Source of the DNA: an uncultured virus (IMG/VR IMGVR_UViG_3300021387_000008)
Lineage: Duplodnaviria > Heunggongvirae > Uroviricota > Caudoviricetes > Crassvirales
Virus record (IMG/VR): IMGVR_UViG_3300021387_000008
Strand: one strand, 5' to 3'
Length of the DNA stretch: 64,000 bases
Below, in pieces: positions 1,106 to 62,001 of this stretch. The first letter of the stretch is position 1, and each line of letters starts with the position of its first letter. The notes under the pieces are model-generated. The model had not been told where the DNA came from. It ran no database searches and saw only the letters and a program-made list of their open reading frames with translations. The position numbers and the translations under genes were made by a program.

Positions 1106-1148
1106 CATCAGCACGCCCGTAGAAAGAATTGTGTGTAGCATATTAACA

Positions 1149-1231
1149 ATCGCAGCAGCAAGGATGATTTAGATTTTCGGAATCAAAGCCGTAAGGTACA
1201 AGATTATCTACTTTATCTTTGTTGTTGCGAT
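1149..1231 (+). ncRNA. candidate structured RNA
   Basis: 1149-1167 pairs with 1213-1231 using several G-U pairs; internal hairpins GATT-TTCGG-AATC and GCC-GTAA-GGT. Confidence 0.45.
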
Positions 1232-1292
1232 ATACATCTTCTAAGTTTAATAAAACAAAATCTTTAATAAAAACAACTTAAAATTTACAACT

Positions 1293-1445
1293 ATGATTTA
1301 TTTTTATAGTTCAACTAATAAGCGTGATAAACTTACTCATCCGCTTACTATCAGTACAACAAGTGAAAGAAGAGCTTATGCTCTTGCAGTAATTAACTTT
1401 GCTAAAAATCGTATGATTGGTAGTCCTAAAAGAATTGAATTATGA
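1293..1445 (+). CDS. small hypothetical protein (50 aa, MIYFYSSTNK...)
   Basis: Hand-translated; TTACAACTATG start; stop overlaps next ATG (ATGA). Confidence 0.6.
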   Translation: MIYFYSSTNKRDKLTHPLTISTTSERRAYALAVINFAKNRMIGSPKRIEL

Positions 1446-1777
1446 TACAGATGAGAAGATTATTTGCATTATTGTTATTAACATTGTGCATAGGATTAGT
1501 AGCTAATGCTCAGACTTATATTCGTAGTGGCAACACATTCATTTCTTCTAAAGGGGAGCGAATTAAAGCTGAACCTACAAAGACAAAGTTTACTTGGAAA
1601 GATAGTAAAGGTCGTGAATATCCTGTATATATTTCTAGTTCTGGTTCTTGCTTTGTAATAAGAGTAAGTTCTAAGACTGGAAAAGAATATAAGAGTTATC
1701 TTGGTCCTGAAATCTCTGAACAGATATGTAAAGAATTAGGTATTAAATATAAAGCCAATAAAAATGATAGAACTTAG
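1442..1777 (+). CDS. hypothetical protein with N-terminal signal peptide
   Basis: MRRLFALLLLTLCIGLVANAQ: basic N-terminus, hydrophobic core, AxA-Q cleavage site. Confidence 0.75.
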   Translation: MIQMRRLFALLLLTLCIGLVANAQTYIRSGNTFISSKGERIKAEPTKTKFTWKDSKGREYPVYISSSGSCFVIRVSSKTGKEYKSYLGPEISEQICKELGIKYKANKNDRT

Positions 1778-2288
1778 ACCTTCTCCTTTTAAGCCAGGTA
1801 AAGGTATAAGTAGTTCTCAACAACAGTTTTATCATCTGTACAAAGATGGTAAAATTGTTGATAGAACTCTTTATACAAAATATGGTTATACAGGAGATAA
1901 AAATAAGAGTATTCTAGTTTTAAATAAACGAACTATTGCAGAAATTAGACCAAGTATATTAGATTCTTGTAGAAAGACTTGTAGAAGTTATCCAAGATAT
2001 ACTATTGGTGAAGATATTGTAGTAGTTAGTGGAGAAACTGGTAAAATTATACTTGATACGAACGATTCTTATTGTTTCGATGGTGCTCCTCTCGTTGTTT
2101 CTGATTATATGTTTAAATATAAAAACAGTCTTTATAATAATAAAGGTGAGTTAATTAAAACTTTTGAAAACGATATTAAGACTCATACTACTGATAATTT
2201 TTATATTGTAATCGAAACTTATGGCTATAACGCTATTAAATGTTATGTTTTTGATAAATTTGGTAAACTTGTAAATGAATATAAATAA
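1764..2288 (+). CDS. hypothetical protein
   Basis: 174-aa ORF tightly packed in the operon. Confidence 0.7.
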   Translation: MIELRPSPFKPGKGISSSQQQFYHLYKDGKIVDRTLYTKYGYTGDKNKSILVLNKRTIAEIRPSILDSCRKTCRSYPRYTIGEDIVVVSGETGKIILDTNDSYCFDGAPLVVSDYMFKYKNSLYNNKGELIKTFENDIKTHTTDNFYIVIETYGYNAIKCYVFDKFGKLVNEYK

Positions 2289-2290
2289 TT

Positions 2291-2689
2291 ATGATTAATC
2301 CAAAGATTTTAAATGCAGTTCTTATGGCTGCTACAAAAGAAACTAAAGATTTAGTTCTGAAAGCATTAGTTGAACATATTAGTAACAATTATGACTATAA
2401 CGACGCTAAGGCAGGTCATGTTATAGAAATGCTTGTAGATAAAACTGCTGTTGTAACTCCAGAAAAGGTAAATCTTAAGTGGATTGAAACTCATCCTGAA
2501 CGTCTTATGTATAAAATTGATAAATATAACATTAAAAATATTGTTGTTGACTCAGTAGATAACATAGACTGTACAGTTAAAGTTAGATTTAAATATCTCG
2601 AAAAGATTAACGAAGATAGAGGTGATGTTAGTTATACTGATAGTTCTACTGACATTAGCTTCAACAACTATCCCGAAATCTTAAAGTAG
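2291..2689 (+). CDS. hypothetical protein
   Basis: 132-aa ORF, 2 bp after previous stop. Confidence 0.7.
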   Translation: MINPKILNAVLMAATKETKDLVLKALVEHISNNYDYNDAKAGHVIEMLVDKTAVVTPEKVNLKWIETHPERLMYKIDKYNIKNIVVDSVDNIDCTVKVRFKYLEKINEDRGDVSYTDSSTDISFNNYPEILK

Positions 2690-2732
2690 GTTAAATATCT
2701 GCAAATTCTTCTTCTATATCAGTATTATTTAT

Positions 2733-2740
2733 TATATTTG
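2733..2740 (+). promoter_or_regulatory. Bacteroidota-type -7 promoter element
   Basis: TATATTTG matches TAnnTTTG upstream of acidic mini-ORF and tRNA cluster; -33 element weak. Confidence 0.5.
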
Positions 2741-2770
2741 TACCCGTACATTATATTAAATTATATTAGT

Positions 2771-4293: not shown

Positions 4294-4299
4294 AATCCT

Positions 4300-4856: not shown

Positions 4857-4921
4857 CAATTCACAATTTCCTCTACGGGGGAGCTTATAAACTTAATATT
4901 AATTTTAAATTTTGTTGTAAA

Positions 4922-7159: not shown

Positions 7160-9475
7160 ATGATTAAATCATTAGCACTTGATGTTGAAATCTTCGTAAA
7201 TCTCTTTAGCGTGACTTTTGTAGATTTACAAGATTATATGAAAACATTTTCAGATTGTGTTGATGCTAAAGGTAAACCTGTAGCATTACCAGAGAAACTT
7301 TCTGTAGCTGAGATTAAGTCTCGTCTTGATAAAGTTAAAAGTAAAATCTTTTGGATTAGTGATACCGATGATACTCAATTAGTTCCATTAGTTGCGTATA
7401 TTAATAATATGCAATCTCACTATGATACTAAAGAAGATGAAAACGGTAATATTACTCAGATTCCTGTTAGAACTGATTTATTTGGTTTTAACAATCAAGG
7501 ATATGATGACCTTATGATAAAAGGTTTTATGATGCATTATAATCGCTATGATAGTACTAAGAATTTGATTAAATATCTATTTAATCTTAGTCAGAAAATC
7601 ATTAAACTTCAAGGTGATAGAGATGCATTTTATGGTGATAAAGATATAGACTTATTGAAGTATTATAAGCTTCCTTATGCTACTGTTGACCTTCAGCGTG
7701 TTTACGGTCTTCATTCTGCAAGCGTTGTAGTTGATAAAGAAGGTAACCGTAATAAGTTTGGTAAAAGTCTTAAACAGACTTCTATTAATCTTAAATGGCA
7801 TGAACTACTCGACTTTACTCTCCCGCCTATAGACAAAGAAGAATATGATGCTTATTGGAAAACTATTGATAGATATCGTGGTATGGATTTAGAACATCTA
7901 AATGAACTTATTACTAACGATTTTGAACGATATGTTCTTCCTAAGTATATAGAGCCAATGCTTTATTATAATAAAAATGACGTATTTCTTGTTTGTGAAA
8001 TGGCTAGACAAAAGCCTGATGAAATTAAATTGAGATATTCAATAACACAGGCTTTTAAAGTTAATGTTCTATGTAGTGCTCGTGCTAATATTGCTGATAA
8101 GCTTACTATAGCCTTTTATTCTAAAATGAGTGGACTTCATCAAAGTCAATTTGAGAAAGGACGTACTGAAAGAACTCGTCTTAGTTTCAATAAGATTATT
8201 TTCCCTCATATTAAATTTAAGACTAAACAACTTCAAGATTTACTTGAAGATATGATGAAAGTGTATGTATATCATACTAATAAAGATGACTTTTGTAGAG
8301 AAATAACTTTTTATGGTACAACTTATACTCTTGCATGTGGAGGAATTCATACTCAAGATGTACCTGTTGTACTTGAGTCTAATGATAAATATATTTATAA
8401 ACATTTTGACTATAATAGTTATTATCCTTCTATAATTGTATCTTATAATATTGCGCCTAAACACTTAAACAATAAAGTTTTTGTGGATATGGTTCGATAC
8501 TTTCGTGATACTCGTGTTAAATGTAAGCATACACCAGACTCTGAAGGTTATATAATTGCTGGAGTCCCAAATAAGATTGCAGCAGAAGCTCTTAAGATTG
8601 TAATTAATTCTATTTATGGTAAATTTGGTAGTGAACTATTCTTTCTTTATGATAGATTTGCTCAACTTCAAGTTACTATTAATGGTCAATTAATGACAAT
8701 GACTCTTGTTGAAGAATTGGAACTTAATGGTATCCATGTTATAAGTGCAAACACTGATGGTATTGTTATTAAACTTCCTAAAGATAAATTGGAAGTATTT
8801 AATGATATAACCAAAAGATGGAATGAAACTAATAGAATGGGTGCTGATAGTGAAGATTATAAAGCATATTTTGCTAGAGATGTAAATAATTATTTTGCTG
8901 TATGGCCTGATGAAAAAGTAGATGCTAAAGGTGCATTAGACCCTAAACAATATCTTAAAGATTTGAAGAAAGGTTATGATATGCCTATTGTAGCAAAAGC
9001 TGTTTTCGAATATCTTTATCATAATATCCCTGTAATGGAAACTCTTCAGAAAAGTACTGATATTCTTGACTTTTGTAAAACTCAGAATGTTGGTAGACAA
9101 TTTGAAGTAGTTTATGAAACTATAGAAAATAACAAAATTGTTACTGTTCATAGTCAGCGACACGTCAGATTCTATGTTTCTTCTAAAGGGGTGGTTATAC
9201 AAAAAGAAAATGTTAATGACCATAAACGGCAAAAACTTGCATCAGGTCTTCCAGTTCAAATTCTTAATTCTTTAGATGATAAACCAATAGAAGAGAGAAA
9301 TATAGACTTTGGTTATTATTATAAAGAAGCATATAAGATTATAGACCCTATTAAGCTTGGTATTTCATCTACAATGAAAGCTGATGCTCAAAAAGGTACT
9401 AAATCTGGTAAACTTCTTCTTAAGAAATATTCTAAAGACTATCTTACTCTATTTGATGAAGATGATTTTAATTAA
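7160..9475 (+). CDS. family B DNA polymerase
   Basis: Exonuclease ALDVE and GFNNQGYD; polymerase motifs DYNSYYPS, KIVINSIYGK, NTDG; ATG at 7160. Confidence 0.92.
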   Translation: MIKSLALDVEIFVNLFSVTFVDLQDYMKTFSDCVDAKGKPVALPEKLSVAEIKSRLDKVKSKIFWISDTDDTQLVPLVAYINNMQSHYDTKEDENGNITQIPVRTDLFGFNNQGYDDLMIKGFMMHYNRYDSTKNLIKYLFNLSQKIIKLQGDRDAFYGDKDIDLLKYYKLPYATVDLQRVYGLHSASVVVDKEGNRNKFGKSLKQTSINLKWHELLDFTLPPIDKEEYDAYWKTIDRYRGMDLEHLNELITNDFERYVLPKYIEPMLYYNKNDVFLVCEMARQKPDEIKLRYSITQAFKVNVLCSARANIADKLTIAFYSKMSGLHQSQFEKGRTERTRLSFNKIIFPHIKFKTKQLQDLLEDMMKVYVYHTNKDDFCREITFYGTTYTLACGGIHTQDVPVVLESNDKYIYKHFDYNSYYPSIIVSYNIAPKHLNNKVFVDMVRYFRDTRVKCKHTPDSEGYIIAGVPNKIAAEALKIVINSIYGKFGSELFFLYDRFAQLQVTINGQLMTMTLVEELELNGIHVISANTDGIVIKLPKDKLEVFNDITKRWNETNRMGADSEDYKAYFARDVNNYFAVWPDEKVDAKGALDPKQYLKDLKKGYDMPIVAKAVFEYLYHNIPVMETLQKSTDILDFCKTQNVGRQFEVVYETIENNKIVTVHSQRHVRFYVSSKGVVIQKENVNDHKRQKLASGLPVQILNSLDDKPIEERNIDFGYYYKEAYKIIDPIKLGISSTMKADAQKGTKSGKLLLKKYSKDYLTLFDEDDFN

Positions 9476-9478: not shown

Positions 9479-10900
9479 ATGACAGCTGACGAAATATTTG
9501 AAAATGCTGCACTTAATTGGAGAGATAATAAAGGGGTTGGAACTGCATTTGTTCCAGCTCCTCTTAATAATAAAGTGTTAGTATATCAAATTCTTGCTAA
9601 ATTATATGCAAGAAGTCCTACAAGTACTACTGTTATAATAGTTAATAAATTTACTACAAGAAGTGAGTTAATAGAATTTCTTACTACTACAGAAGATGAA
9701 GATAACAATAAAGAATTTAAAAATCTTATTGATAATAAGTTAATTAGAATTTTTACTGTTGATTTCATACTTAGTTGTAAATGGAAATCTAGTGCTACAT
9801 TATGTGTTTGGTATACTCCTGAAACATATATTCACGGAGTTGCTATATATGTAGCATTTTGTAAATACAAACTTGTTGTTTTAAATAAACTATTTACTAA
9901 CAATGATGATAGTACAAACTTGTATAAAATTGCACCTCTTCTTGATTGTTTTAAGCAAGCTGAAATTGATGCATTGCGTGTAAGCTCCCCCGTAGAAGAA
10001 ACATTGATTGATGTAGTGATACCTGAGGATACTGAAGATTATAAACTTTATCAATATTATTGTAAATATATTGAAACTAGTCTTAATATCTTTGGTTCTT
10101 TTGATATTATGCAACAAGCTCGTATTGGTAACACAGTACTAAATATTTCTTCTGCTACTATTTGTGCTCAAATTGCTCAAGAAAACGGATGGAATGAACA
10201 TCTTGATATGTCTTTTGAATATAATAGACAAATAGATGAACTTTACAATCCTAATAATCTTAGAGATAGAGCTACACAAACTTATGAAATTATACGTAAT
10301 AGAACTAATCTTTTAGCTGATTATGAAGGTAAGCTTGAAAAAGTTTTGGAGTTGGTTAAAGAACATTCTGGGGATAAGATTCTTATTATAAATAAACGTG
10401 GTGAATTTGCAAACAAAGTTACAGAGTTTTTAAATAATAATTCTGAAACTGATATTTGTGGAAACTATCACAATAAAGTAGATAACATTGATGCAGTTGA
10501 TGTTTATGGTAGACCTATCTATTTTAAGAGTGGCGCAGAAAAAGGTAAACGTAAATCTATGGGTGCTAGAGCGCAAATGAGTCTTAATGAAGATAAGTTT
10601 AATCTAGGAATGATTAATTGCTTAAGTTTATCTAATGCTCCAGATAAATCTCTCTGTGTAGAAGTTGATGTTGTTATAATTACATCTCCTTTATGTGAAG
10701 ATATAGAATCTTATCTATATAGATTAAGTAATGTTCATATTCGTAATGGTAAAATAAAATTATTTTCTATCTTTTGCAGAAACACTATTGAACACCAAAG
10801 GTTATTTAACAAACCGATGACAGAAACGCACACAATAGTTAATAAAAGTGAATTTAATGCTGATGATGGAAATAAATTTGATTTTATCATTGCAGATTGA
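9479..10900 (+). CDS. SF2 helicase-like protein, probably inactive
   Basis: Helicase-like layout (KLEKVLELVKEHSGDKILII...VDVVII) but no GKT or DExx; follows PolB. Confidence 0.55.
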   Translation: MTADEIFENAALNWRDNKGVGTAFVPAPLNNKVLVYQILAKLYARSPTSTTVIIVNKFTTRSELIEFLTTTEDEDNNKEFKNLIDNKLIRIFTVDFILSCKWKSSATLCVWYTPETYIHGVAIYVAFCKYKLVVLNKLFTNNDDSTNLYKIAPLLDCFKQAEIDALRVSSPVEETLIDVVIPEDTEDYKLYQYYCKYIETSLNIFGSFDIMQQARIGNTVLNISSATICAQIAQENGWNEHLDMSFEYNRQIDELYNPNNLRDRATQTYEIIRNRTNLLADYEGKLEKVLELVKEHSGDKILIINKRGEFANKVTEFLNNNSETDICGNYHNKVDNIDAVDVYGRPIYFKSGAEKGKRKSMGARAQMSLNEDKFNLGMINCLSLSNAPDKSLCVEVDVVIITSPLCEDIESYLYRLSNVHIRNGKIKLFSIFCRNTIEHQRLFNKPMTETHTIVNKSEFNADDGNKFDFIIAD

Positions 10901-14546: not shown

Positions 14547-15773
14547 ATGAGAAGAAATCCTAATACTAGTAGTCTTACTAAAGAGTATATTGAGTCTAAG
14601 ATTAGTCAAGAAGCTATTGTAAGTAAGTACTTGGGTATTCCTATGGAAACTATACAAAATTGTATAGCTAAAAATGCTCTTATTGAAAGTGTCTTTCGTG
14701 ATGATGACACTAATAAGAGTATGGGTATACAATTTAATGCTAAAGGACGACTTAAAGTTCGTGACTTTGGAGGTTATGGTTTTTTTGAGGATATCTATGG
14801 GGTTGTAGCTTATGTTTTGAGTATTGCCTTTGAAAGAAAGATTGAAACCAGTAACAAACAAGATTTCTATTTTGTTCTTAAACATATAGCATATACTTTC
14901 AGTGATATTATAGACGGAAAAGAAGTTGACCCTAACGTTCAACCTTTATTAGCAAAAGCTGTTGCTAAAGGTAGAACAAAGAAAACTATTATAGATATTG
15001 CGCCTAGAAGTTGGAATAAATATGATAAAGACATATGGGCTCGTTGGGGTGTAGATTTGAATTATCTTAATACTCACTTTGTAATTCCTGTCGAACAATA
15101 TTATCTTAATCGAACTGTTGATACAGAACCTAAATACTATTACAAAGCAAAAGACCCATGTTATGCTTATATGCTTGGAACTAATAGACAAGGTGTTCGT
15201 CTTGTTAAACTTTATTTCCCTAAGAGAAATCGTCGTACTGAATTGAAATTTGTAACTAATTGTAATGTTCTTGAAGGTTTACTTAATCTTGAACTTGATA
15301 ATTATGATTACATTTTAATTACTAAAAGTAGTAAAGATAGATTGAGTATTGGTAATCATCTAATGCACAATCCTCTCTACGGGGGAGCTAGAAAACTCAA
15401 TATAGGAGTTATAAATCTTCCAAGTGAAAATTATAGACTTCGTCAAGTAGAATATGATTGGCTTGTTAAAAAACTTGCTAATGATGGTATGATACTTAGC
15501 CTTCTTGATTTCGATAGAACTGGTAGAGATGGTGCTAAATATTTAGAAGAGGAATATAATATTCCTTATCTCTTTATAACTCGTGGTGAATTTGGTCTAC
15601 CTAATTTTAATTGCAAAGATTTTGCAGACCTCCACGATAAATTTAATAAAAATCAAATTAATAGATTTATTGAAGATACTAAAAAATATGTCGAACTCAG
15701 ATTTAAATCTTCACAAAATTCAGATGCCTTTGACGGATTTGACGTATCAGGTGATATGCTCCCGTTCTATTAG
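14547..15773 (+). CDS. DNA primase (crAss-type, TOPRIM)
   Basis: ITKSSKD, LLDFDRTG (DxD) and KDFAD TOPRIM-like motifs; N-terminal SVFRDD..S..DFG domain. Confidence 0.82.
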   Translation: MRRNPNTSSLTKEYIESKISQEAIVSKYLGIPMETIQNCIAKNALIESVFRDDDTNKSMGIQFNAKGRLKVRDFGGYGFFEDIYGVVAYVLSIAFERKIETSNKQDFYFVLKHIAYTFSDIIDGKEVDPNVQPLLAKAVAKGRTKKTIIDIAPRSWNKYDKDIWARWGVDLNYLNTHFVIPVEQYYLNRTVDTEPKYYYKAKDPCYAYMLGTNRQGVRLVKLYFPKRNRRTELKFVTNCNVLEGLLNLELDNYDYILITKSSKDRLSIGNHLMHNPLYGGARKLNIGVINLPSENYRLRQVEYDWLVKKLANDGMILSLLDFDRTGRDGAKYLEEEYNIPYLFITRGEFGLPNFNCKDFADLHDKFNKNQINRFIEDTKKYVELRFKSSQNSDAFDGFDVSGDMLPFY

Positions 15774-16173: not shown

Positions 16174-16681
16174 TTATATTACAACTCTTGATGATGCTGA
16201 TAAACAAATAATAGATAATAGAGTTGTTGAGAAAGGTATTGAACAATATCTTAATCAGCAACTTATTTATCTAGATTGTTCTCGTGTTATTCAAGGTATG
16301 AGAATGATGCAAACTATTGGTTATCCTTATCAAAGAGAAGTCTCTTCTTATCTTTATGCCGTTGACAACTGTGTAAACTTTATGACAGTTGAAGATAATA
16401 ATCCTAATAATTTTGCTAAAGATTATTGGATTAGTCTTTTGCTTAATAGACATCATAAAAACCTTGAATATGAGAAAGAAAATCCTCCTATTTGGTATGG
16501 TGGTAAGAAAGCTAAAGATAAATGGGATAAAGAGCACGGTAAGCACCCCCGTAGAAAGAAATCTAGTGAGGGTACTATCCCTGGTATGGGTAAAGAAATA
16601 AGTAATAAAGAAAGACTTAAAAAGCTTAGTGCTCAGTTTGGTAATCTAACTTTTAAAATTAAACCTCCTAAAAAAGATTAA
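16151..16681 (+). CDS. hypothetical protein
   Basis: 176-aa ORF with basic C-terminus. Confidence 0.7.
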   Translation: MEYTELRDYITTLDDADKQIIDNRVVEKGIEQYLNQQLIYLDCSRVIQGMRMMQTIGYPYQREVSSYLYAVDNCVNFMTVEDNNPNNFAKDYWISLLLNRHHKNLEYEKENPPIWYGGKKAKDKWDKEHGKHPRRKKSSEGTIPGMGKEISNKERLKKLSAQFGNLTFKIKPPKKD

Positions 16682-24136: not shown

Positions 24137-24237
24137 TTAATCTACATTCTCTTCTACAGGGGTGCTAGTACTGCTTATAGTGCTAATTGCTCCCCCCGTA
24201 GAAGAAATGTATGATAACATAATTTAACAGTAGTTAT

Positions 24238-41700: not shown

Positions 41701-44700
41701 TATTTTTAACTCTAGGAATACCGATATATCCTACAGGCTTACCTTCAAACTCAAAGTAAATTCTATCTTTAGAAGTATCTTTAACAACCTCTAATTCTTG
41801 ACCTTGTTCAAGTTGGTCAAATACTTCTTTATCAACAATTTCTCTAGTATTAATTCTATGATTCTCTTCTCTAATAGCTTTGTCTATTCTTTCTTCTACG
41901 GGCGTTTTAACCTTATCTAGAAAGTCAGGAGCAGCTACTTCATCTTTACTTTCAATAACTTCGTATTGAGATTTAGCATCATCAGAAAGGAGATAATTAG
42001 AAAGAACATTGTAAAGAAGTTCAGCATTTTCATTATTCTGAAATTCTCCATTACAGTATCTAAGAAGATTCTCAAGACTAATTACATATTTACCATTAGA
42101 TTTCTTTTGACCAATATCTTTAAGATAGGCTTTAACAAGTTTCTCAACTTCCTTTTTAAAAGAAGTCTTAAACCTATAACCTAATCTACTATCAGGAGCT
42201 TCTTCGGTAGTACTACTTTGCAAACTGTTAATAAGAGTATCAACAATTTCTGGATACTTTTTAGCAAGACGTTGCATAGCTCTATTCCAAGATTCTTTAG
42301 CAAGTCTTTCAAATTCTTCATCATTGTCGATAGCAGCTCTTACATCAGAAAGACTAGCAAGATAAGTTTCATAAGTAACTTCTTTACCATCTTTTAAATC
42401 TAAAGCAGCTTGTCTAGCAGCACCCGAAATTTTAGGAATATAATCAAGAGGGTCAGCACCTCTAACAGGAGCTTCAGGTTCTTTTTCTTTCTTTTCTTCT
42501 TGTTCTTCTTCAGCAGGTTGAGTACCGACAGGTTGTGTAAGCACCCCTGTAGAAGAAACTGATGAAGTAGCATTAACCTTACCTAAAACTTGATTAACTT
42601 CATCATCATTAAGACCATAAGTAGCTTTTATATTATTTATAGCCTCTTCTCTAGTTTTAAAAGCAACAGAATTTAATTTGTTCTTAAGAGATGTATTATT
42701 ATTTATCTCATTAACTGCTGCATTTACAACATCTTCTCTAACATTAGACTTAATAGGATTTTGTACAAGACCTTGAGCAATAACTTCTATTTCTCCATTA
42801 GTTTTAAACTTTACTATTGGGTCACGAGTAACAGTTGCGCCATCCATAGGAGTTTGCTCTAATTCAAATAGAGTTGTGTTACTTATAAGACCTGGAAGTT
42901 GAGAATTATTTATTGCACTAAATGTTAATTCAAAATTACCATTACCAAGATTACGAACAGGAATAGCACCTGGAACATCTTGATTTTCTACACTTGTAGT
43001 AACAAGAGTACCATTTTGGGCTTGTGTTATAGTCACAAACTTAGGGGCATTTTGGGTTGAAACATCGCCTATTTGCCCATTTCCTTGCCTTGTGGCTTGT
43101 TGTTGTGCGCTTGCTGATTGATTAATCGGCTGCCCCGTTTGTTGCGCTGAATTTGAATTTTGAGATGCAGAAGAATTTTCAGCTCCCTCAGTATTTTGTT
43201 TGTCATTAGCATCAACTTGAGCTTGAGTAGCTTTTATAAGCATCAAACTTTTACCAAGTCTATCAAACAAATCTCTATTCTTAACATCTGCCATATTAAG
43301 AACCTTAGCAGCTTCTTTTATTTGGTCACGTTCTTCTTCAGTAAGACCATTTGTATCAACCAAGAAATCAGCTGTGTTAGAATCATTGTAGATATTATTC
43401 ATAACATAAAGAAGATTCATATCTTTATGCTTTCTTTGAATTTCAGCAAGATTCTTAAATTGTTCTTCTATTGCTTGTTTACGAGCAACATTTTCGATGT
43501 TATTAATAGCGTCTACATAGTGAGTAATCTCACTTTCAGTTTCAGCAAGTTTTGCTTGTTCTTTAATCTTTTCAAGTTCAATTCTAGAAAGAATATCATA
43601 ATTCTCACTGAGTTTTGGGTCAATACTATCTAGATATTGTAAAGCATTTTGAAGTTTATTATTGGAATCTGTAGGAAGAACATAGCGCATATCACTTGTT
43701 ATCTTTCTAAGTTCTCCAACAACAGCTTCTGCACTAACTTCTCTTTTTTCTTGACCTGTTTCATCAAAGACATAACTCAAATCACTAACAAGCATTTGGT
43801 CAAGATTTGTAATTAAATCCAAATCACTTGTAGTAACTTTAAATTGTTTTCTGTCAGGAGAATATTCTCTAACTGCGGAGTTAGCTACTTGAAGAGCATA
43901 AAGAGTTCTAGCAAACTGAGCTTCGGTTGAAGTTTGAAGAGCCTTTCTCTTAATCACATTAATTTGAGTATTAAGTTCTTCAATATCAAATTGTCTAGTA
44001 AGAGTAGGATGTTCTGCTTGCTGAGCTTCAAGTTCTTTTCTTTCTGCAATAAGACCAGATAGTTCTTGAATAGTAGTCTTAAGAGAAATCATACCTTGAT
44101 AATCAATAGCAGAATCTAACTTTTCACCTACTACTTGTTTAATTCTTTCAGTATCTTCGTTGTATAAAGCTGCAACTTCGTCATAACGCTCAAGATTTAA
44201 GCGATGACGAACATTAGCAGAAGCAATCATCTGAACATATTCAGCAGGAAGAGAAACACCTTTTCTGTCTGCAATCTTATCAGCTATATCGGAAGCATGA
44301 ATTATTTCATTTTGATAAAGATTATCAATTTTCTTAACTCGTTCTGATGCTTTAGCTGCAGCAGCTTCTGCTTCTTCTTTAGATATTTGATTATTAGCAT
44401 CACCTTCCATATAAGCTTGAACAATAGCTTCTCTTACATTTTCATCTTGGAGATAAGAATCAAGCATTCTAAGAGTACCATTGTTTCTAGCATTAATAAT
44501 AAGTTCATCAAGATATTCGGTATAGGCTTTTTCTCTAAGCATTCTTTCTTCTACAGGGGAGCTAATATCTTGTTGCGTACCATCTTCTTTTTTAATATAT
44601 GGATTCTTACCACTATTAATCTGACGCATAACAGATTTAAAGGTTTCAAGTTTTACATTTCTACCTTTAATATCTCCTACCATTCTTTCAGTTTCACTAA

Positions 44701-49303: not shown

Positions 49304-51373
49304 TTATACTAATTTAAAACCTCGTTTACTAGCTATATTGTTTATTTGTCTAGCTAATCTCTTCTTAGTATCCTCATCTTTAGCAGCATTGTATTGTGCT
49401 ATAAGAGCATCATATTGTTGTTTAGCCTCACCTCTAGATGCTAAGGTAGCATAATAAGAAGCTTGACTATCAGAACCAGCACCAAGTAAAGCACTAGCAA
49501 TCTTAGCTTTTCTATCAGCCATTGCACTTAGGCTACTAGTAAATCCTTGTGTTCCACCAAGCAGAGCGTTAGCCCAAGCCTGAGCATTAGAAGTTTGAGC
49601 AGCAGACATTGTATTAGCACTATTAATAGCTCCTTCAGAAAGAGCACCTGCTGCACCAAGAATCTTCTGATTATTAATATCATTGTTATATTGTAAAGCA
49701 TCAAGGTATGCACTAGCATATTCTCTATTGGCTTGAGTAGCAAGCTGAGCATTAAGTTCTGTAGCTCTACTAACTCTTTCAGCATTATCTTGACGAATAT
49801 TCTGCATTTGCTTTTGGTCTTCAGAATAAACAGTATTTCTAGCATCTTGTGCATTTACTTCAGCTTCAGCCATTCTTTGTTGAGCAGCAGCGCCACTAGC
49901 AGAATATTTGCCAGCATTAGCTAAAGTTCTTTGAAGACTTCTATCAATTTTAGAAATACCTTGTTGAGCAAAACTTACAGGAGCTTGAAGAGCAGGCATT
50001 GCATGAGCAGCAGCATAATCTTCTTTACGAATTGAACTCATATCAATACCAGTAAGAGAATTATAAGCATCTCTCATAATACCAGCAGCTTGATTCTGTG
50101 CATCAGCAATAGTTCTAGCAGCAGACCTATTAGCAGCAGAAGTAATCCAAGCACCACCTATATTTCCTAATGCTCCAATCCCAGAAGAAAGAACATCAAC
50201 ATTTCCTAAAACGTTACCTACAGCAGATGCTGCTCTACCAAGACCTCTACCTACAGAACTTATTCCTCTACCAATTGAACCAAAAAGTCTATTAAAGAAG
50301 CTAGGCTTAGAACTAGAAGATGAAGATGAAGTAGAATTTGTACCATAATAATTAGTTCTTCCACCTGTACCTGGACCTCCATTATCTAATCGTTTACGAC
50401 CACCACATTTAAGACTTCTTTTTCTGTTTGTAACTTGAGAAGCTACACCTACAGTAGTATCACCAACAGTATCAACACCCATTTGTGGACCTATTTGATT
50501 ATACATAGTATAAAGAGAATTAGGTTCTCCACCAAGTAGTTTCTTTTCTACGGGGGTGCTATTATGCTTACCGTCGTCACTAATACCATTAGCAGCTTTA
50601 AGTTGTTCTTGAATAGCATAAGCTTGCAAAGGATGCATACCACCTTTAACCATCTTAGCAGGATTGAATCCAGCAATAGAATGTTTGCTTATAAAGTAAG
50701 CATTATCGGGAGTGTTTACCATAATCTCACCTTGATTAGTATTTTGATTACCTTCTCCTTCAATTACATTACCGTCAGCAAACTTAATACCAACACCAGT
50801 CTTATTCTTACCACCTTGAGCTTTATGATAATGTTCGTGGTCGTTACCTACAATTTCGTAAAGGTCATAGCCTTCAGGCGTAGTACCAATAGGAATTACA
50901 GTACCACCGTCAGTAACAACAAAAGGCATATTCTCGCTCCCCCGTAGAAGAGAAGGAGATTTGCCTGCAAGACGTAGTTTGCGTTTAGTACTACCACCAT
51001 TTTTAACTTGTATTTTACTAGCTTCAAGTCTATCATTAACATTTTGTTGACCTGTAAGCATTTGTAATTGAAGTTGAATATCTTTTTGAAGTTCACGATT
51101 CTCAGCATTTTGTTCTTTAACAAATTCTTGAGATTCTTGTTGCAGTTCTTTAGACCTAGCACTTTGGTCTTTTATAGCTTGAGCTTGACGTTGAGCAGAT
51201 TGAATAGTAGCTTTAGCTTGGTCTTGTGCTGCTTTTTTAGTAGCACTAGCTCCAATAGCTGAGGCTGCCATAGTACCTGCTACATTTATACCTGCAGCAG
51301 CAAGAATGGCTGCTTCTTGAGAACCAAAAATAGCCTTACGTCTACCACCATTTTTTAATTTTCTTATAGCCAT
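49304..51373 (-). CDS. virion cargo/ejection protein with hydrophobic helices
   Basis: 689 aa; Ala/Gly-rich membrane-type segments, coiled coil, repeated basic-xxx-GG motifs; follows the muzzle gene. Confidence 0.65.
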   Translation of the reverse strand: MAIRKLKNGGRRKAIFGSQEAAILAAAGINVAGTMAASAIGASATKKAAQDQAKATIQSAQRQAQAIKDQSARSKELQQESQEFVKEQNAENRELQKDIQLQLQMLTGQQNVNDRLEASKIQVKNGGSTKRKLRLAGKSPSLLRGSENMPFVVTDGGTVIPIGTTPEGYDLYEIVGNDHEHYHKAQGGKNKTGVGIKFADGNVIEGEGNQNTNQGEIMVNTPDNAYFISKHSIAGFNPAKMVKGGMHPLQAYAIQEQLKAANGISDDGKHNSTPVEKKLLGGEPNSLYTMYNQIGPQMGVDTVGDTTVGVASQVTNRKRSLKCGGRKRLDNGGPGTGGRTNYYGTNSTSSSSSSSKPSFFNRLFGSIGRGISSVGRGLGRAASAVGNVLGNVDVLSSGIGALGNIGGAWITSAANRSAARTIADAQNQAAGIMRDAYNSLTGIDMSSIRKEDYAAAHAMPALQAPVSFAQQGISKIDRSLQRTLANAGKYSASGAAAQQRMAEAEVNAQDARNTVYSEDQKQMQNIRQDNAERVSRATELNAQLATQANREYASAYLDALQYNNDINNQKILGAAGALSEGAINSANTMSAAQTSNAQAWANALLGGTQGFTSSLSAMADRKAKIASALLGAGSDSQASYYATLASRGEAKQQYDALIAQYNAAKDEDTKKRLARQINNIASKRGFKLV

Positions 51374-55852: not shown

Positions 55853-56596
55853 TTAACCTCTAGGTAAAAAAGTACTATTATAAAAGAAGTTATTCCAACC
55901 TTCAGTGTTAGCAAGTTTTCCTTTAACAGAAGCTGCTGCCTTAGGTCTAAGATTATTCCACTGAACAAGAGGATTTATTACAGCGTTAGGAGATTTCAAA
56001 TCATATACAGGATGCTTACTACCTCTGCTAAGATATTTAAACATACAATACCAAGCAAGAGCTTCAAGCAAAAGACCATCATCATAAATGTAAGGACATT
56101 CACAATCATAGTAATCATCGTGATATGTTGCAACCTCAAATGTTTCTACTGTAATACTATCGGTATCAAAACTTAAATCTATATTATTTCCATCAAGAAG
56201 AAAGTTTCTACCATTAGGACTTACAATATCAGCAACTTGTGTTGTTTCCCAACCATTTGGAGCTTTAGGATTTGTGATAGCAATTTGCTCCCCCGTAGAA
56301 GGAATTGTGGACTTAGGACACTTGCAATCTTTTTCTCTATTAAAAGCAGGTATTTCAACACCGTTACTATCAAAAACACGAAGTTCCTCTGCATTGATAG
56401 TGCAGGGGAATTGCGCAATTCTATTAGAAACCTCAAGCTTTCTACGTTTACGTTCCATAGGTAGAACTTTCATTTGAGAAAGAGCATCTATAGTCCACGC
56501 AGCTACTCTAGGAATCCAATCACTTTCACTAATATTAAAATCATTATCGATTTTTCCTATTAGCCTTTGGAGTGTGAGCTGATTGTTGAGCTTCAT
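55853..56596 (-). CDS. tail ring/tubular protein
   Basis: 247 aa; P.IYD..LLEALAWYC; lies between muzzle and IHF-like gene as in crAss-like phages. Confidence 0.6.
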   Translation of the reverse strand: MKLNNQLTLQRLIGKIDNDFNISESDWIPRVAAWTIDALSQMKVLPMERKRRKLEVSNRIAQFPCTINAEELRVFDSNGVEIPAFNREKDCKCPKSTIPSTGEQIAITNPKAPNGWETTQVADIVSPNGRNFLLDGNNIDLSFDTDSITVETFEVATYHDDYYDCECPYIYDDGLLLEALAWYCMFKYLSRGSKHPVYDLKSPNAVINPLVQWNNLRPKAAASVKGKLANTEGWNNFFYNSTFLPRG

Positions 56597-58193: not shown

Positions 58194-58318
58194 ATTATTA
58201 ATATTTTATTTATTATAAGTTTTATCTAAATGAAAGTTCCCCCGTAGAAGAGTTGTAGCATTAACAACTCGGAATTAATCTGAGTGGTTCTAAACTTATC
58301 TACTTCTCTATACGGAGG

Positions 58319-58549: not shown

Positions 58550-58936
58550 CTATAATAGTTTCAACTTATGGTTTATCATTAACATACGCATTACTATGTA
58601 ACCAACAGTATATGCTGGAGGCTCTCCTTCATCATCTACATTATAAGCCTTAAGCATATGTTGTTTAACATGTTCAGCTTCATGAACAATAGAATTAATA
58701 TAATCATATCTATTTTTATGATAATTGAAAAGAACTACACTAATATGTTTTCTAATATTGCTACAAGTTACAGCTTTAGCTTTATACTTTAGGTTGTAGT
58801 AAACATCATCAATTTTCTCTACGGGGGAGCCAATAGCTTTCAGTTCAAAAGCTATATCATTAAAAAAGTTATAGTCTACATTATAATAAACTATAACTTC
58901 CCAATAACCGTCAATATCGATTAATTGTTTAATCAT
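58550..58936 (-). CDS. small zincin-like (HExxH) protein
   Basis: SIVHEAEH...EPPAY. Confidence 0.7.
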   Translation of the reverse strand: MIKQLIDIDGYWEVIVYYNVDYNFFNDIAFELKAIGSPVEKIDDVYYNLKYKAKAVTCSNIRKHISVVLFNYHKNRYDYINSIVHEAEHVKQHMLKAYNVDDEGEPPAYTVGYIVMRMLMINHKLKLL

Positions 58937-59349: not shown

Positions 59350-59442
59350 AATAGTAATGTTATTAAAAAGGGCAGTGAGCTGAAAGCTCCCCCGTAGAGA
59401 AGAATTAGCATCACTGCCTAGTTAATCACTTTATTTTATAAG

Positions 59443-59675: not shown

Positions 59676-60170
59676 TTAATTTGTTTGTTTAGCTTTCTCT
59701 TTAAGTAAAGATATTGCCTCAGCTAGCTGAGATTTAAGACTTCCAACTTCATCTTTAAGTGCTTTAACTTCATCAGAATTACTTGCACTACCAGGCATAA
59801 GCTCATTAAGAACATTATCATACTGAGGAATAAGTGATTCGTGATAAGAGGCACTATCAACAATAGCTTTACTTTTATCTTTCAAACTTTTAACGTAGTT
59901 ATATAGAGAATCTTTATTATCTGCAATGACAAAAGATTTATCTCCAAAATCAGCAATAGCACTATTGCTGGGCACTTGTTGGAAAGTTTTCTTTTCACCG
60001 TTAATATTGCAAACAATATCAAGTCTTAATTCAGGCATTTGACCAAACATATTAGGATTGTGACCTCCAATAGTTGGCATAACACTTTCAACAGAAGCGG
60101 TAAACCACTTTATTTTATCTGTTCTATCTAGTCCATAGAGGACATTACCTTTACTTAAAGTAGAAAACAT
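59676..60170 (-). CDS. hypothetical protein with C-terminal coiled coil
   Basis: 164 aa; part of a tightly packed operon. Confidence 0.75.
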   Translation of the reverse strand: MFSTLSKGNVLYGLDRTDKIKWFTASVESVMPTIGGHNPNMFGQMPELRLDIVCNINGEKKTFQQVPSNSAIADFGDKSFVIADNKDSLYNYVKSLKDKSKAIVDSASYHESLIPQYDNVLNELMPGSASNSDEVKALKDEVGSLKSQLAEAISLLKEKAKQTN

Positions 60171-60191
60171 AATTATACACTTTTTAATTAA

Positions 60192-60530
60192 TTAACTTAC
60201 AGTCCTTGACATAAGAGTTAGCAAACCTCTAGTTCTATCATTGAACACAAGAATATTACTAACATTAAGCAATTCAGCAGCAGTTACTGGAGTACCATTA
60301 GGCAAAGTCAATGGTTTTGTAACATCATTAAGAGTGAGTGTTACAGGTAAAGTTGTAGTAGCATCTGCAGGAACAACTGTACTAATTATAATAGTAAGAT
60401 AACCTACAGGCTGAATTCTACGAACACCAAGAGCAATGTTAATGGTCTCAGTTCCAACAGTAGTATTTGTAGATACAATATACGGAATACCACCAGCGTT
60501 AGTTGCTATAATTTGATTACAACAAGCCAT
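60192..60530 (-). CDS. hypothetical beta-rich protein
   Basis: 112 aa; Thr/Val-rich; MACC N-terminus. Confidence 0.75.
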   Translation of the reverse strand: MACCNQIIATNAGGIPYIVSTNTTVGTETINIALGVRRIQPVGYLTIIISTVVPADATTTLPVTLTLNDVTKPLTLPNGTPVTAAELLNVSNILVFNDRTRGLLTLMSRTVS

Positions 60531-60551
60531 ACGTTTACCTCCTATCCGATA

Positions 60552-61532
60552 TTAATAAACAATACCACCGCCGAAGCCAGAGCCCCAGCCACCAAAATTA
60601 CCACCAGGATATAAACCCTGACCTATGTAAGGAGTAGCATTAACACCTACAAGATTAGGCCACTGAACAGGAACAGTGTTAGGCTGTTTTGCAGCAATAG
60701 CGTCAATCTTATCATCAAGAGCATGGAAAGCAGCATTAAACTGCAGAGTCTGATGGTCATTACTAATCTGATTACGCAGTTGAGTAATAATATCACCCTG
60801 AGTATTAATCTTATTCTGCAACTCACGTTCCTTCAAATCACAGAACTCTTTAGTAATAAGAGTATTCTGACCGGCAATAGCATTAAGAATAGCATTAGTA
60901 TCACGCTCAGCCTGATTCTGCAGAGTATTAGTTTGCTGACAAATAGCTAACTTATCAGCACCATCTAACTGAGCAAGCTGAAGCTGAAGACCAGCAGCAT
61001 TCTTTTCAGCCTGAAGAATATCATCAGCATGATTAGCAGCAAGAGTTGACTGAAGAGCATTAGTTTGCTGACAAATAGCAAGACGATTTTCGCAGCAGCA
61101 CTCACAAAGCTTAGACAGAATAGAAGTATCACCAGCTTGAATAGCATTAATAGTCTGAAGACCACTCATACCAATCTGACCAGCAACCTGAGTAATAGAA
61201 TTTTGCAGACCAAATACACCAGTCTTAATTCCTTCAACAGAAGTATTAAGAAGCTGAGCAAGAGTATTCAGATTATCAAAACGACCATTCATAATCTCAG
61301 CAAGATACTGGCGACCTTCAGAACCGTTATGAGAAGCGAGATAATCATTAAAACTGCCATTACGACCATTTCTATCCCACATCATCCACATAAACATAAT
61401 CCACCACCAAGCTCCGTTGCCACCACCAAAACCACCATTGTTTTGAAGAGCCAACAGAAGATTAGGGTCAATACTAGAAGCAGCATGTCCTGTAGCTGCA
61501 TCAGGGAAAACAAAAACACCATTTTCGCCCAT
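60552..61532 (-). CDS. Gly-rich/coiled-coil protein with CECCC motif
   Basis: 326 aa; GGFGGGNGAWWWIMFMWMMW, LCECCCENRLAICQQTN; biased codons suggest high expression. Confidence 0.8.
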   Translation of the reverse strand: MGENGVFVFPDAATGHAASSIDPNLLLALQNNGGFGGGNGAWWWIMFMWMMWDRNGRNGSFNDYLASHNGSEGRQYLAEIMNGRFDNLNTLAQLLNTSVEGIKTGVFGLQNSITQVAGQIGMSGLQTINAIQAGDTSILSKLCECCCENRLAICQQTNALQSTLAANHADDILQAEKNAAGLQLQLAQLDGADKLAICQQTNTLQNQAERDTNAILNAIAGQNTLITKEFCDLKERELQNKINTQGDIITQLRNQISNDHQTLQFNAAFHALDDKIDAIAAKQPNTVPVQWPNLVGVNATPYIGQGLYPGGNFGGWGSGFGGGIVY

Positions 61533-61600
61533 AATAGTTTCATTTTAATTTTGTTAATAATAAAGTTTAATATCTTTTATGACGTCATTAAAAGATATTG

Positions 61601-61631
61601 CAAAGATAACAAAATTACTATCACGAGCAGA
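61601..61631 (-). promoter_or_regulatory. Bacteroidota-type promoter
   Basis: Minus strand TCTG-N19-TATCTTTG(CA) upstream of ATG 61532. Confidence 0.6.
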
Positions 61632-61649
61632 AGGATGCCGATAAATAAA

Positions 61650-61683
61650 ATAACCGCCTAACTATCAGCAAGTTAGACGGTTA
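61650..61683 (-). terminator. hairpin/terminator after the HTH gene
   Basis: TAACCGCCTAACT..AGTTAGACGGTTA stem; A-run on + gives a U-tract on -. Confidence 0.55.
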
Positions 61684-61710
61684 AGACGTTACCGATTTAT
61701 AGAAAATAAT

Positions 61711-62001
61711 TTATTCAGCTTCAACAGCACACATAATCTCATCTTTATACCAAATAAGATTATTCTTATGAGCAAGTTTACGACCTCTAGGAAATTTGCC
61801 TAGACGAACATAATCATCAAATCTGCTTCTACTCATATTAAGATAATCACAGACTTCTTCTTTAGTCATTTCAATATGAGCAATAGCAGAAAGTATATTT
61901 GTAGCTTGTTCTGCATTTAGATGAGAATTACCTGCGTCAATAGCATCAGCGTACTGCCTCATCAGTTTTGCTACAATCTTTTCTACAGGGGTGCTTATCA
62001 T
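61711..62001 (-). CDS. AlpA/excisionase-like HTH DNA-binding protein
   Basis: MTKEEVCDYLNMSRSRFDDYVRLGKFPRGRK..LIWYKDEI; ATG at 62001. Confidence 0.8.
   Translation of the reverse strand: MISTPVEKIVAKLMRQYADAIDAGNSHLNAEQATNILSAIAHIEMTKEEVCDYLNMSRSRFDDYVRLGKFPRGRKLAHKNNLIWYKDEIMCAVEAE

Follow-up and report, generated by a model that had tools for sequence, protein, structure and literature searches.

A GC-rich motif forms quasi-regular, strand-wise series in Intestiviridae phage genomes

Introduction

A stretch of 64,000 nucleotides from an uncultured Crassvirales virus (IMG/VR record IMGVR_UViG_3300021387_000008), called the window here in its full length, raises the question of what a GC-rich word that recurs through an AT-rich genome, and is read through in all stop-free frames, could be doing there. 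An initial annotation of the window had counted at least 26 copies of the word and had inferred that selection appears to act on it as DNA and that it forms a lattice of binding sites. Literature searches found no published description of the motif. We analyzed its excess, conservation and layout in the window and in related phages, and its occurrence in bacterial genomes.

Results

Excess of the motif in the window

With up to 3 mismatches allowed, the 17-mer GCWCCCCYGTAGAAGAA had 25 matches in the window, compared to a mean of 0.19 and a largest count of 2 in 100 dinucleotide shuffles, and its core, CCYGTAGA, was found 25 times against 1.43 expected; sites 15372 and 28600 contain the core but are not in the 3-mismatch list of the 17-mer. 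As the initial annotation had proposed, coding copies were compared with codon-preserving shuffles, in which synonymous codons were permuted inside each gene (n = 100). There were 20 coding copies of the core 8-mer (shuffled mean 4.3, maximum 10), 20 of the 17-mer with ≤3 mismatches (mean 3.4, maximum 7) and 17 of the 10-mer (mean 0.4, maximum 3). Gene calls for these shuffles, and for the third-codon and sense/antisense counts below, came from a longest-ORF heuristic. These counts confirm a real, DNA-level excess of the motif in the window, and the phenomenon turned out to be much larger than first described.

Most of the earlier description of the copies was reproduced. The family pattern gave 13 copies on the plus strand and 13 on the minus strand of the window, and six copies were intergenic against the ORF list (1116, 4872, 24153, 24195, 58241 and 59391), with the rest in ORFs. 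All five stop-free frames are used, and the peptides SPVEE, SSTGE, F/LYGG and LLRGS were recovered. The motif was said to force uncommon codons, and its sites indeed hold 10 of the 23 CCC codons and 7 of the 21 GGG codons of the window. Sites 9178 and 45425 are weak and not kept as motifs in relatives. The copies are as follows.

1111..1127, +, intergenic copy that departs from the 17-mer at 3 positions, flanked by ORFs 386-880 and 1442-1777
1543..1559, −, degenerate copy CCTTTAGA, antisense in ORF 1442-1777; perfect core at the orthologous place in relative G001
4868..4884, −, intergenic copy directly after tRNA-Gln; kept in G001 and G004
9178..9194, −, weak look-alike in the DNA polymerase B gene, probably non-functional; no motif there in relatives
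9984..10000, +, perfect copy in ORF 9479-10900 (SSPVEE), the deepest conservation of all sites; motif retained in place in 11/11 aligned genomes and following each dialect
15372..15388, −, antisense in the DnaG-type primase gene (LYGG); kept in 4/4 aligned relatives
16543..16559, +, in ORF 16151-16681, PRRK frame; pattern match and alignment to relatives
20370..20386, −, perfect copy antisense in the ThyX gene (STGE); kept in G001 and G003
24149..24165, −, left arm of an inverted pair in the gap separating the DUF932 and dUTPase genes; pair kept in G001 and cr271_1
24190..24206, +, right arm of the same DUF932/dUTPase pair; pattern match
25567..25583, +, perfect copy in small ORF 25464-25727, whose coding status is uncertain; pattern match and alignment to relatives
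28600..28616, −, sense copy, ARRK frame, in the gene for a 4260-aa virion protein; core match and alignment to relatives
31627..31643, +, antisense in the 4260-aa gene; G001 version degenerate by point changes only
32927..32943, −, GTAAA-variant copy in the 4260-aa gene; pattern match
35618..35634, −, in the 4260-aa gene; lost in G001 by substitutions, without an indel
36162..36178, +, antisense in the 4260-aa gene (LYGG); pattern match and aligned genomes
40274..40290, −, in the 2510-aa gene (SSPVER); site conserved out to crAssphage
41891..41907, −, in the 2510-aa gene; pattern match and alignment to relatives
42541..42557, +, perfect copy antisense in the 2510-aa gene; pattern match
44546..44562, −, perfect sense copy in the 2510-aa gene; pattern match and alignment to relatives
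45425..45441, +, weak copy, core only, not conserved; core match and alignment to relatives
50543..50559, −, sense copy in ORF 49304-51373; pattern match and alignment to relatives
50936..50952, +, antisense in ORF 49304-51373 (LLRGS); kept despite flanking indels
56287..56303, +, antisense in the tail ring protein 1 gene; pattern match and aligned genomes
58236..58252, +, intergenic; pattern match and alignment to relatives
58814..58830, −, sense copy in ORF 58550-58936; pattern match and alignment to relatives
59386..59402, +, intergenic, at the loop position of an inverted repeat that flanks it; pattern match and alignment to relatives
61978..61994, −, at codons 3-8 of ORF 61711-62043 (MISTPVEK); pattern match and alignment to relatives

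Selection on the DNA and extent in the family

Third-codon identity, pooled over six relatives, was 193/222 inside the motif versus 2237/3136 in the flanks, which is the synonymous-site comparison that the initial annotation had suggested. Orthologous sites, antisense ones included, were retained across subfamilies while the encoded residues shifted with the lineage-specific form of the motif, or dialect, as in the peptides SSPVEE, SRPVKE, NSPVKE and HSPIKE. Shuffles, third-codon identity and dialect-driven residue changes agree in supporting the DNA, rather than the peptide, as the target of selection, in line with the initial annotation.

The motif is a feature of the Intestiviridae as a whole and is not private to the source phage: 18 to 32 copies were present in each of 14 Intestiviridae genomes, prototype crAssphage included, compared to 0 to 5 for a reversed control, and the number was steady at about 26 to 32 per 90 kb across subfamilies. 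The genomes share the core CCCC-Y-R-T-A-R-A-R-G, and the conserved stretch covers ∼19 bp, AGCWCCCCYGTAGAAGAAA (174 sites, 6 genomes), with flanks and consensus that are lineage-specific among the 14 genomes. Enrichment was absent in three other Crassvirales families, represented by one genome each.

Spacing and strand layout

In the 14 Intestiviridae genomes, the copies form a separate quasi-regular series on each strand. The median per-strand gap was 6.0 kb (n = 309 gaps), with a coefficient of variation (CV) of 0.29 to 0.75; 24 of the 28 strand sets reached p < 0.05. Gaps below 0.25 times the mean made up 4.5% of the total, versus 22% expected, and gaps above twice the mean 3.9%, versus 13.6% expected. 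When the strands were merged, the gap CV was 0.48 to 0.71, and 13 of the 14 genomes gave p < 0.05; we note that none of these p values are independent, because the 14 genomes are related and some orthologous sites are common to them. Strand counts were near balance, without strand skew. All 43 close pairs (<300 bp) were inverted and none tandem, and distant neighbors lay on opposite strands in 223 of 333 cases. The lattice proposed by the initial annotation therefore stands insofar as spacing is more even than random, with the correction that it is a lattice per strand, which points beyond duplex binding to a process specific to strand and direction.

Gene context, bacterial genomes and candidate readers

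Among 202 sites, 67 were sense, 85 antisense and 50 intergenic. Because of these proportions, the motif is not a gene-oriented, promoter-like signal, in agreement with the initial annotation. A promoter for a T7-type phage RNA polymerase was rejected as a candidate, as 152 of the 202 copies lie inside ORFs and the intergenic ones occur in both orientations. Stoperators, or dispersed operators oriented with transcription, were likewise rejected on the 67 sense versus 85 antisense copies in coding sequence. Rfam covariance models gave no match to the motif, and their only matches in the window were 4 tRNAs.

The core was not enriched in 46 Bacteroidales genomes (5 + 41; 1.9-8 Mb), with 0 to 10 occurrences in each, no more than the control gave; the window's true host may not be among them. 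The exact 17-mer gave scattered single matches in bacterial genomes, among the matches listed.

Of the readers named earlier, neither the AlpA-like helix-turn-helix (HTH) protein nor the IHF-like protein found support, as 61711-62043 had no HTH match and 56544-57497 no IHF-like match in Pfam, PHROGs and NCBIfam. The third, DUF932, is present as a domain in the window, with no evidence tying it to the motif. The phage encodes a polymerase B, a DnaG-type primase, two helicase-like proteins and a ligase, as well as a Gam-like protein, a lead for an SSB-like protein and, according to the cr271_1 annotation, a RecT-like protein.

Discussion

Our preferred reading, held tentatively and at a rough probability of 0.4, is that phage DNA replication or recombination uses the motif as a strand-specific cis signal, with a phage-encoded factor as its reader; we infer that this factor would be of phage origin, would act strand-specifically and would belong to replication or recombination. 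The signal would reside in the DNA itself, throughout the Intestiviridae, and would work strand by strand. Copies recur quasi-regularly every 3 to 9 kb on each strand, and therefore an oriented copy is always within a limited distance; a directional machine tracking one strand could meet a correctly oriented copy at that interval. The copy might then trigger a strand-specific event, either primer synthesis or loading of a replisome or helicase; alternatively, it may be the site of a specific nick, or a signal that stops or modulates a helicase-exonuclease. Core and flanks would carry information enough for near-absence from host chromosomes, and such near-absence would therefore mark the phage DNA as "self". 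The flanks may have diverged into dialects together with the putative factor.

Several observations touch on this reading. The phage has its own polymerase, primase, helicase-like, ligase and RecT-like genes, which would suit replication or recombination. The nick-associated motifs of Pseudomonas phages, compared below, are a precedent, and their placement mostly on one strand speaks against the likeness. Against priming, the motif spans 12 to 20 bases and is longer than the known targets of DnaG-type primases, which so far are trinucleotides. Against nicking, opposed nicks 29 to 40 bp apart at close pairs would endanger packaged DNA. Even spacing would suit an architectural protein equally well.

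Such a protein, binding the duplex at lattice sites to organize, condense, package or eject the genome without strand-specific chemistry, was the main idea of the initial annotation, and we consider it unlikely. The even merged spacing, the steady copy number, the placement in both orientations independently of genes and the dialects, which would fit co-evolution with a phage protein, all speak for it. However, an orientation-blind binder leaves unexplained the per-strand regularity (24/28 strand sets), the lack of tandem arrangements among close pairs (0/43) and the alternation of strands (223/333 neighbors), and no DNA-binding domain was found in the readers named for it. It is improbable that the motif is a target of DNA modification, or a protective self-mark against host or phage nucleases. 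Its essential absence from Bacteroidales genomes is what a self-mark requires, the central CpG varies between lineages as CG, TG or CA, which may reflect deamination of methylated CpG, and the window also has a DUF1599 "nucleotide modification associated" domain, at 19400-19762. Yet no methyltransferase or other modifying enzyme was recognized in the window, a modification target needs neither enrichment nor even per-strand spacing, and ∼28 marks per 90 kb would give little protection from sequence-specific nucleases.

A role in transcription, with the copies serving the host RNA polymerase or the phage's virion RNA polymerase as promoters, terminators, pause sites or antitermination sites, appears quite improbable. 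Intergenic DNA is enriched four-fold in sites (50/202 versus ∼6% non-coding DNA), intergenic inverted pairs could form bidirectional terminator hairpins, and sense copies are slightly biased to within 60 nt of a start codon (12/101, versus 6.9% expected). Three quarters of the copies nevertheless lie deep in genes, antisense copies make up 85 of the 152 in coding sequence and conservation extends to antisense copies, no Rfam family matches and, in a study of the crAss-like phage phi14:2, early transcripts lack a common upstream motif and the middle promoters resemble sigma-70 promoters (bioRxiv 10.1101/2020.03.07.982082). A repeat that spread selfishly, through insertion or gene conversion, and has no function for the phage would account for a GC-rich word in all stop-free frames of an AT-rich genome and for flanks that evolve in concert within one genome. 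We regard it as very improbable, as sites occupy the same codon across subfamilies, regular per-strand spacing is not expected of it, and orthologous places without the motif have equal length and differ by point substitutions, not indels (s31632, s35622, s41895 and s45430). An inserted in-frame repeat of the RPE-like or MITE-like type was rejected, there being no presence/absence indel relative to orthologues. We also disfavor, as scarcely probable, a host-read signal, either a Chi site for RecBCD/AddAB or an uptake-type sequence. Its density (∼1 per 3.3 kb) and oriented, strand-wise layout are Chi-like, and inverted intergenic pairs and dialects recall the DNA uptake sequences (DUS) of Neisseria. 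The initial annotation had suggested a Chi-like signal, but it is unlikely that a host enzyme reads it, given the lack of enrichment in the 46 Bacteroidales genomes, with the reservation on the true host given above, and the bacterial-genome scan showed no enrichment among the matches listed. Moreover, crAss002 and Rudgehvirus carry different dialects though both infect Bacteroides species, and at 12 to 20 bp the motif is longer than known Chi sites.

Comparison with known systems gives partial likenesses. Chi sites are words of 5 to 8 nt, over-represented in bacterial genomes and skewed with replication direction, which act in one orientation on a strand-tracking helicase-nuclease and have a role in marking "self". 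The Intestiviridae motif has a density of the same order; unlike Chi, it lacks strand skew, its neighbors alternating as described, and over-representation was not seen in the 46 Bacteroidales genomes. DUS/USS lie in genes on both strands equally and as inverted pairs between genes, have lineage dialects matched to their reader and mark bacterial chromosomes, about once per kb, for uptake by competence pili. Equal strands, inverted pairs and dialects recur here as a resemblance only: the motif marks a lytic phage genome and not a bacterial chromosome, no dense occurrence was seen in the 46 Bacteroidales or, among the matches listed, in the bacterial scan, and we know of no even per-strand spacing for DUS. 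The ∼24 to 30 stoperators of mycobacteriophage L5, bound by the repressor gp71, are asymmetric 13-bp sites, similarly dispersed through intergenic and coding DNA; they are oriented with transcription, in contrast to the 67 sense and 85 antisense coding copies here. Rickettsia palindromic elements and yeast mitochondrial GC clusters are inserted mobile elements and likewise GC-rich repeats tolerated in-frame in AT-rich genomes, whereas Intestiviridae copies arise and decay by substitution and are conserved in position. In a report on phage nicks, the nick-associated motifs of Pseudomonas phages tf and Rembedalsseter are enriched, mostly coding and conserved among distant relatives, at ∼1 per 3.4 kb (13 per 45 kb in Rembedalsseter), and those of T5, tf, Rembedalsseter and phiKMV are 9 bp long, lie for the most part on a single (coding) strand and concentrate near one end of the genome (PMC11780129). 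The Intestiviridae motif resembles them as described there in being over-represented, mostly coding, similarly dense and kept among relatives with little nucleotide similarity; it differs in being 12 to 20 bp long, balanced between strands (13 copies on either strand of the window, and close to balance across the 14 genomes) and even along each strand.

What is new here is the per-strand series with its 6-kb median gap, and the inversion of all 43 close pairs, in a family to which the human gut's most abundant virus belongs. By a bolder reading, which we think unlikely, the quasi-periodic copies on each strand of Intestiviridae DNA may form a "self-addressing" lattice. Such a lattice would be a cis signal of a new class and would confine a strand-tracking phage machine, possibly a replisome with a zinc-less DnaG-type primase or a helicase-exonuclease, to phage DNA, and the dialects would then act as incompatibility barriers between co-infecting crAss-like phages.

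Motif excess and selection on the DNA

The GC-rich 17-mer GCWCCCCYGTAGAAGAA was found 25 times in the 64-kb window at up to 3 mismatches, whereas dinucleotide shuffles predicted 0.19 copies, and its 8-base core (CCYGTAGA) was found 25 times compared to 1.43 expected. The base composition of the window is 31-32% G+C. Alignment of 174 core matches from the window and five relatives delimited a continuous, non-palindromic conserved block of ~19 bp, AGCWCCCCYGTAGAAGAAA. Six copies are intergenic and the others lie inside ORFs; the motif is read in all five stop-free frames, and the strand split by the family pattern is 13/13. In 100 synonymous-codon shuffles that kept every protein and the per-gene codon usage, the mean numbers of coding copies were 4.3, 3.4, and 0.4 (maxima of 10, 7, and 3), compared to 20, 20, and 17 observed. 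The motif also contains 10 of the 23 CCC codons and 7 of the 21 GGG codons of the window. These counts bear out what the initial annotation had read from the sequence alone, namely a genome-wide, strand-balanced excess with six intergenic copies, use of every stop-free frame, and rare codons forced into coding sequence, and the excess also stands against codon-preserving shuffles. We note a cluster of four tRNAs at 2978-4857 on the + strand (Arg-TCT, Glu-TTC, Asn-GTT, and Gln-TTG), of which Glu-TTC and Arg-TCT decode GAA and AGA, codons written by the motif in two frames.

At orthologous places the motif was retained while the flanks fell to 66-88% identity; the site at 9989 was retained in 5/5 relatives and that at 15376 in 4/4 of those aligned. 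Third-codon positions, pooled over six relatives, were identical at 193/222 positions in the motif compared to 2237/3136 in the flanks, and a seventh relative with another dialect (lineage-specific variant of the motif), cr8_1, showed the opposite trend (4/7 in the motif versus 62/91 in the flanks). Individual sites are very old. A site in the gene neighbouring the polymerase has the same codon and orientation in 11/11 aligned genomes, and others could be traced to crAssphage and crAss002. At these old sites the nucleotides track the lineage dialect and the encoded protein changes along with them: the polymerase-neighbour site encodes SSPVEE, STPVEE, SRPVKE, TLPVEE, NSPVKE, or HSPIKE, and one antisense site encodes SSTGEL, PFTGGL, or PPRGV, depending on lineage. 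The earlier proposal that selection acts on the DNA is thus upheld by dialect-following nucleotides that alter residues, by conserved third positions, and by the excess over codon shuffles. A preference for linkers was rejected as an explanation, as S, P, Q, and G show no more than a mild enrichment (1.1-1.25x) in the protein flanks.

Orthologous places without the motif (31632, 35622, 41895, and 45430) differ by point substitutions and have the same length, so the motif is not an inserted element; substitutions rather than indels rule out a mobile insertion, and a selfish-element reading is unlikely.

Dialects of the motif across Intestiviridae

The exact 18-mer was present in 96 IMG/VR stretches, mainly on ~90-kb contigs, and five such genomes each carried 21-27 copies of CCCCYGTAGA, near-equally divided between the strands, compared to 0 for the reversed control. 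De novo k-mer enrichment showed that other Intestiviridae write variants of the same core.

Dialects in other Intestiviridae (genome; word; copies)
Prototype crAssphage BK010471; gACCCCCCGTAGAGGATGGA; 16
Prototype crAssphage BK010471; the gACCCCCCGTAGAGGATGGA word with GTGGA; 15
cr3_1; tgYTCCCCCGTAGAGGAA; 19
cr110_1; GAGACCCCCCGTAGAGGAT; 26-27
cr8_1; AGCCGCCCCGTAAAAGG; 23
crAss002 and cr107_1; TTCCCCCRTAAAGGAG; ~30 each
Rudgehvirus jaberico (cultured); TGTAAnnnCCCCTGTARAGGAG; 26

The family pattern CCC-Y-R-T-R-R-A occurred 18-32 times in 14/14 Intestiviridae genomes examined (reversed control, 0-5). Across 77 polymerase-flanking loci, the window-type core persisted to ~48% polymerase identity and was essentially missing from the 32% group. 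The motif is a genuine cis element that is under strong selection and extends across the family Intestiviridae. Cultured members include crAss002, grown on Bacteroides xylanisolvens, and Rudgehvirus jaberico, grown on B. cellulosilyticus. A hairpin or RNA structure was rejected, as a 5-bp stem around the core occurs in cr3_1 only and is not kept across dialects; an Rfam scan returned tRNAs only.

One genome from each of three further Crassvirales families was analyzed. No word of comparable enrichment was found in Suoliviridae cr52_1 and no word of this kind in Steigviridae crAss001, and Crevaviridae cr127_1 carries an unlike GC-rich repeat of ~30 bp, CGGAACACCTCTCGCCCTTGTGGCCATTA, in 10 copies in a genome of 26% G+C (MT774393.1, positions 1769, 11356, 11912, 19699, 28698, 28871, 42040, 42232, 59325, and 82342). 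Several of these copies form inverted pairs with 170-550 bp between them, and the repeat may represent a similar system in a second Crassvirales family. In crAss001 (MH675552.1), the 9-mer CTCCAGAAG/CTTCTGGAG occurs 29 times compared to 1.8 expected and may reflect either repeated peptides or a signal in the DNA.

Layout on the two strands

Tallied on heuristic gene calls, 50 of 202 sites were intergenic, a four-fold enrichment over the ~6% of non-coding DNA, and coding copies were 67 sense and 85 antisense. An association with gene ends was weak and was rejected as an explanation. After merging of close pairs, spacing was more even than random, with gap coefficients of variation (CV) of 0.48-0.71 and P < 0.05 in 13/14 genomes. 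Taken per strand, the CV was 0.29-0.75, with P < 0.05 in 24/28 strand sets; the two strands of the window gave 0.50 and 0.51 (P = 0.011 and 0.015). These tests are not independent, as the genomes are related, yet the pattern recurs in lineages that differ in dialect and, for the most part, in their sites. In 309 per-strand gaps pooled from 12 genomes after near-duplicates were dropped, the median was 6.0 kb and 74% fell within 0.5-1.5x the mean, compared to 38% expected, with short and long gaps both depleted. Every one of the 43 pairs less than 300 bp apart was inverted (28 convergent, 15 divergent, 0 tandem), and the strand alternated between more distant neighbours in 223/333 cases. The simplest reading is that each strand has an independent series of its own and that the two share intergenic slots, where a copy is cheap. 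We know of no phage counterpart to this strand-wise regular layout.

Gene content of the window and its relatives

The window belongs to a crAss-like phage whose nearest named relative is cr271_1 (Intestiviridae, Obtuvirinae; polymerase identity of 74%); the polymerase of one IMG/VR genome, G001, is 97% identical.

Features of the window
Up to 24.1 kb, + strand: replication module (SF1 helicase, DNA polymerase B, HNH endonuclease, primase, ligase, ThyX, Gam-like protein, DUF932), with a dUTPase next
11865-12506, + strand: free-standing NUMOD4+HNH endonuclease, between a RecT-like gene and the next ORF
12605-13423: no match in an atlas look-up
13520-14449: DUF669 (SSB-like), the only lead from the atlas look-up
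14547-15773, + strand: primase
19400-19762, + strand: ORF with DUF1599, "nucleotide modification associated domain 1" (E = 8.8e-8)
From 25.9 kb, - strand: 4260-aa and 2510-aa virion proteins and tail-ring genes

The DUF1599 ORF is a hint of possible nucleotide or DNA modification by the phage. The NUMOD4+HNH gene is absent at that place in G001, and the HNH gene of cr271_1 sits elsewhere; we regard the window gene as a probable mobile homing endonuclease. Nucleotide identity between the window and G001, taken over the whole length, swings from ~73% to 98% from one segment to the next, a sign of mosaic history, and several of the switches coincide with copies of the motif (e.g., 25572, 40278, and 44550). 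In a genome-wide test for recombination junctions at the motif, the left-right jump in identity at sites exceeded the genome mean in 8/8 genome pairs, with P values of 0.014 to 0.37 and confounding by intergenic location.

The model of the primase (pLDDT of 81.8) matches the DnaG, T4 gp61, and T7 gp4 primases with a Foldseek probability of 1.0. The enzyme is of DnaG/T7 gp4/T4 gp61 type, and the RepB'-like, ssi-reading enzyme to which the cr271_1 annotation had pointed was rejected; PDB sequence searches gave no match. We take its N-terminal domain, judged against the DnaG motif, to have a zinc-ribbon layout without the cysteine ligands, which serves as a lead only. Across 13 orthologues, only a single cysteine is invariant.

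Possible roles of the motif

The exact 17-mer was also detected in at least 124 stretches of unrelated bacteria as scattered single matches, and among the matches listed only one contig, of 93.7 kb, had several. This contig, JAFRAK010000011.1 (93,767 bp, labelled a Bacilli MAG), is of crAss-like size, carries four exact copies within 6 kb, and is probably an Intestiviridae phage contig mis-binned into a bacterial MAG. In Bacteroidales, sampled as the host order rather than as confirmed hosts, the family core (CCCC-Y-R-T-A-R-A-R-G) occurred 3-10 times in five MAGs and 0-9 times in 41 further genomes of 2.1-8 Mb, at or below the reversed control, for a density of ~1-2 per Mb, whereas the phages carry ~300 per Mb. 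A Chi or uptake signal of the host, the former among the roles first suggested, is unlikely given this lack of enrichment and the scattered single matches in bacteria. In one Bacteroidales sample (G046), the family 12-mer occurs nine times on nine separate contigs, all recorded as forward, versus 0 reverse, which is odd for chance.

The motif is a DNA-level, phage-specific, orientation-aware, and strand-wise regular signal. Its reader, the factor that recognizes it, is probably phage encoded, since the dialects follow the phage lineages and Bacteroidales genomes lack the word. Its user is probably a machine that moves directionally along a single strand, since each strand has its own supply of copies and long gaps are avoided. 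Together, these two points favour a role in phage replication or recombination, to which we tentatively assign a probability of about 0.4 for the whole class of candidate events, comprising priming or loading, nicking, and helicase-exonuclease control; we make no choice among them. A search for the reader by phyletic pattern returned too many Intestiviridae-specific genes at tblastn sensitivity. The serious rival is the initial annotation's lattice of binding sites for a duplex architectural protein, which we regard as less probable: the even spacing that it calls for was found in 13/14 genomes, but an orientation-blind duplex binder leaves the strand-wise pattern unexplained. A role in gene expression is unlikely; in the accessible text of a study of phi14:2, early transcripts are described as lacking a common motif and middle promoters as sigma-70-like (bioRxiv 10.1101/2020.03.07.982082).

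The closest precedent is found in the nick-associated motifs of the phages tf and Rembedalsseter, which, in the portion of the source available, are one-stranded and clustered, whereas the Intestiviridae motif is strand-balanced and evenly spaced per strand (PMC11780129). In searchable literature text, which leaves out figures, logos, and subscription papers, the motif words and dialect cores retrieved only unrelated primer sequences, and the motif as a concept retrieved nothing relevant. A review describes Crassvirales replication, packaging, and host takeover as almost uncharacterised; its accessible text has no "promoter," "sequence motif," "terminator," "origin of replication," or "nick," and its four mentions of "repeats" are off-topic (PMC10136315).

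The motif offers a concrete, experimentally addressable cis element, conserved across the whole family including prototype crAssphage, and strong enough to set the amino acid sequence in dozens of proteins; it accounts for unusual clusters of rare codons and for short peptides that are conserved in crAss proteins. The dialect words are compact markers by which Intestiviridae contigs can be recognized and subtyped, and they could reveal phage contigs that were wrongly assigned to bacterial MAGs. Because the motif is present in the cultured members crAss002 and Rudgehvirus jaberico, it is directly testable and its reader can be found.
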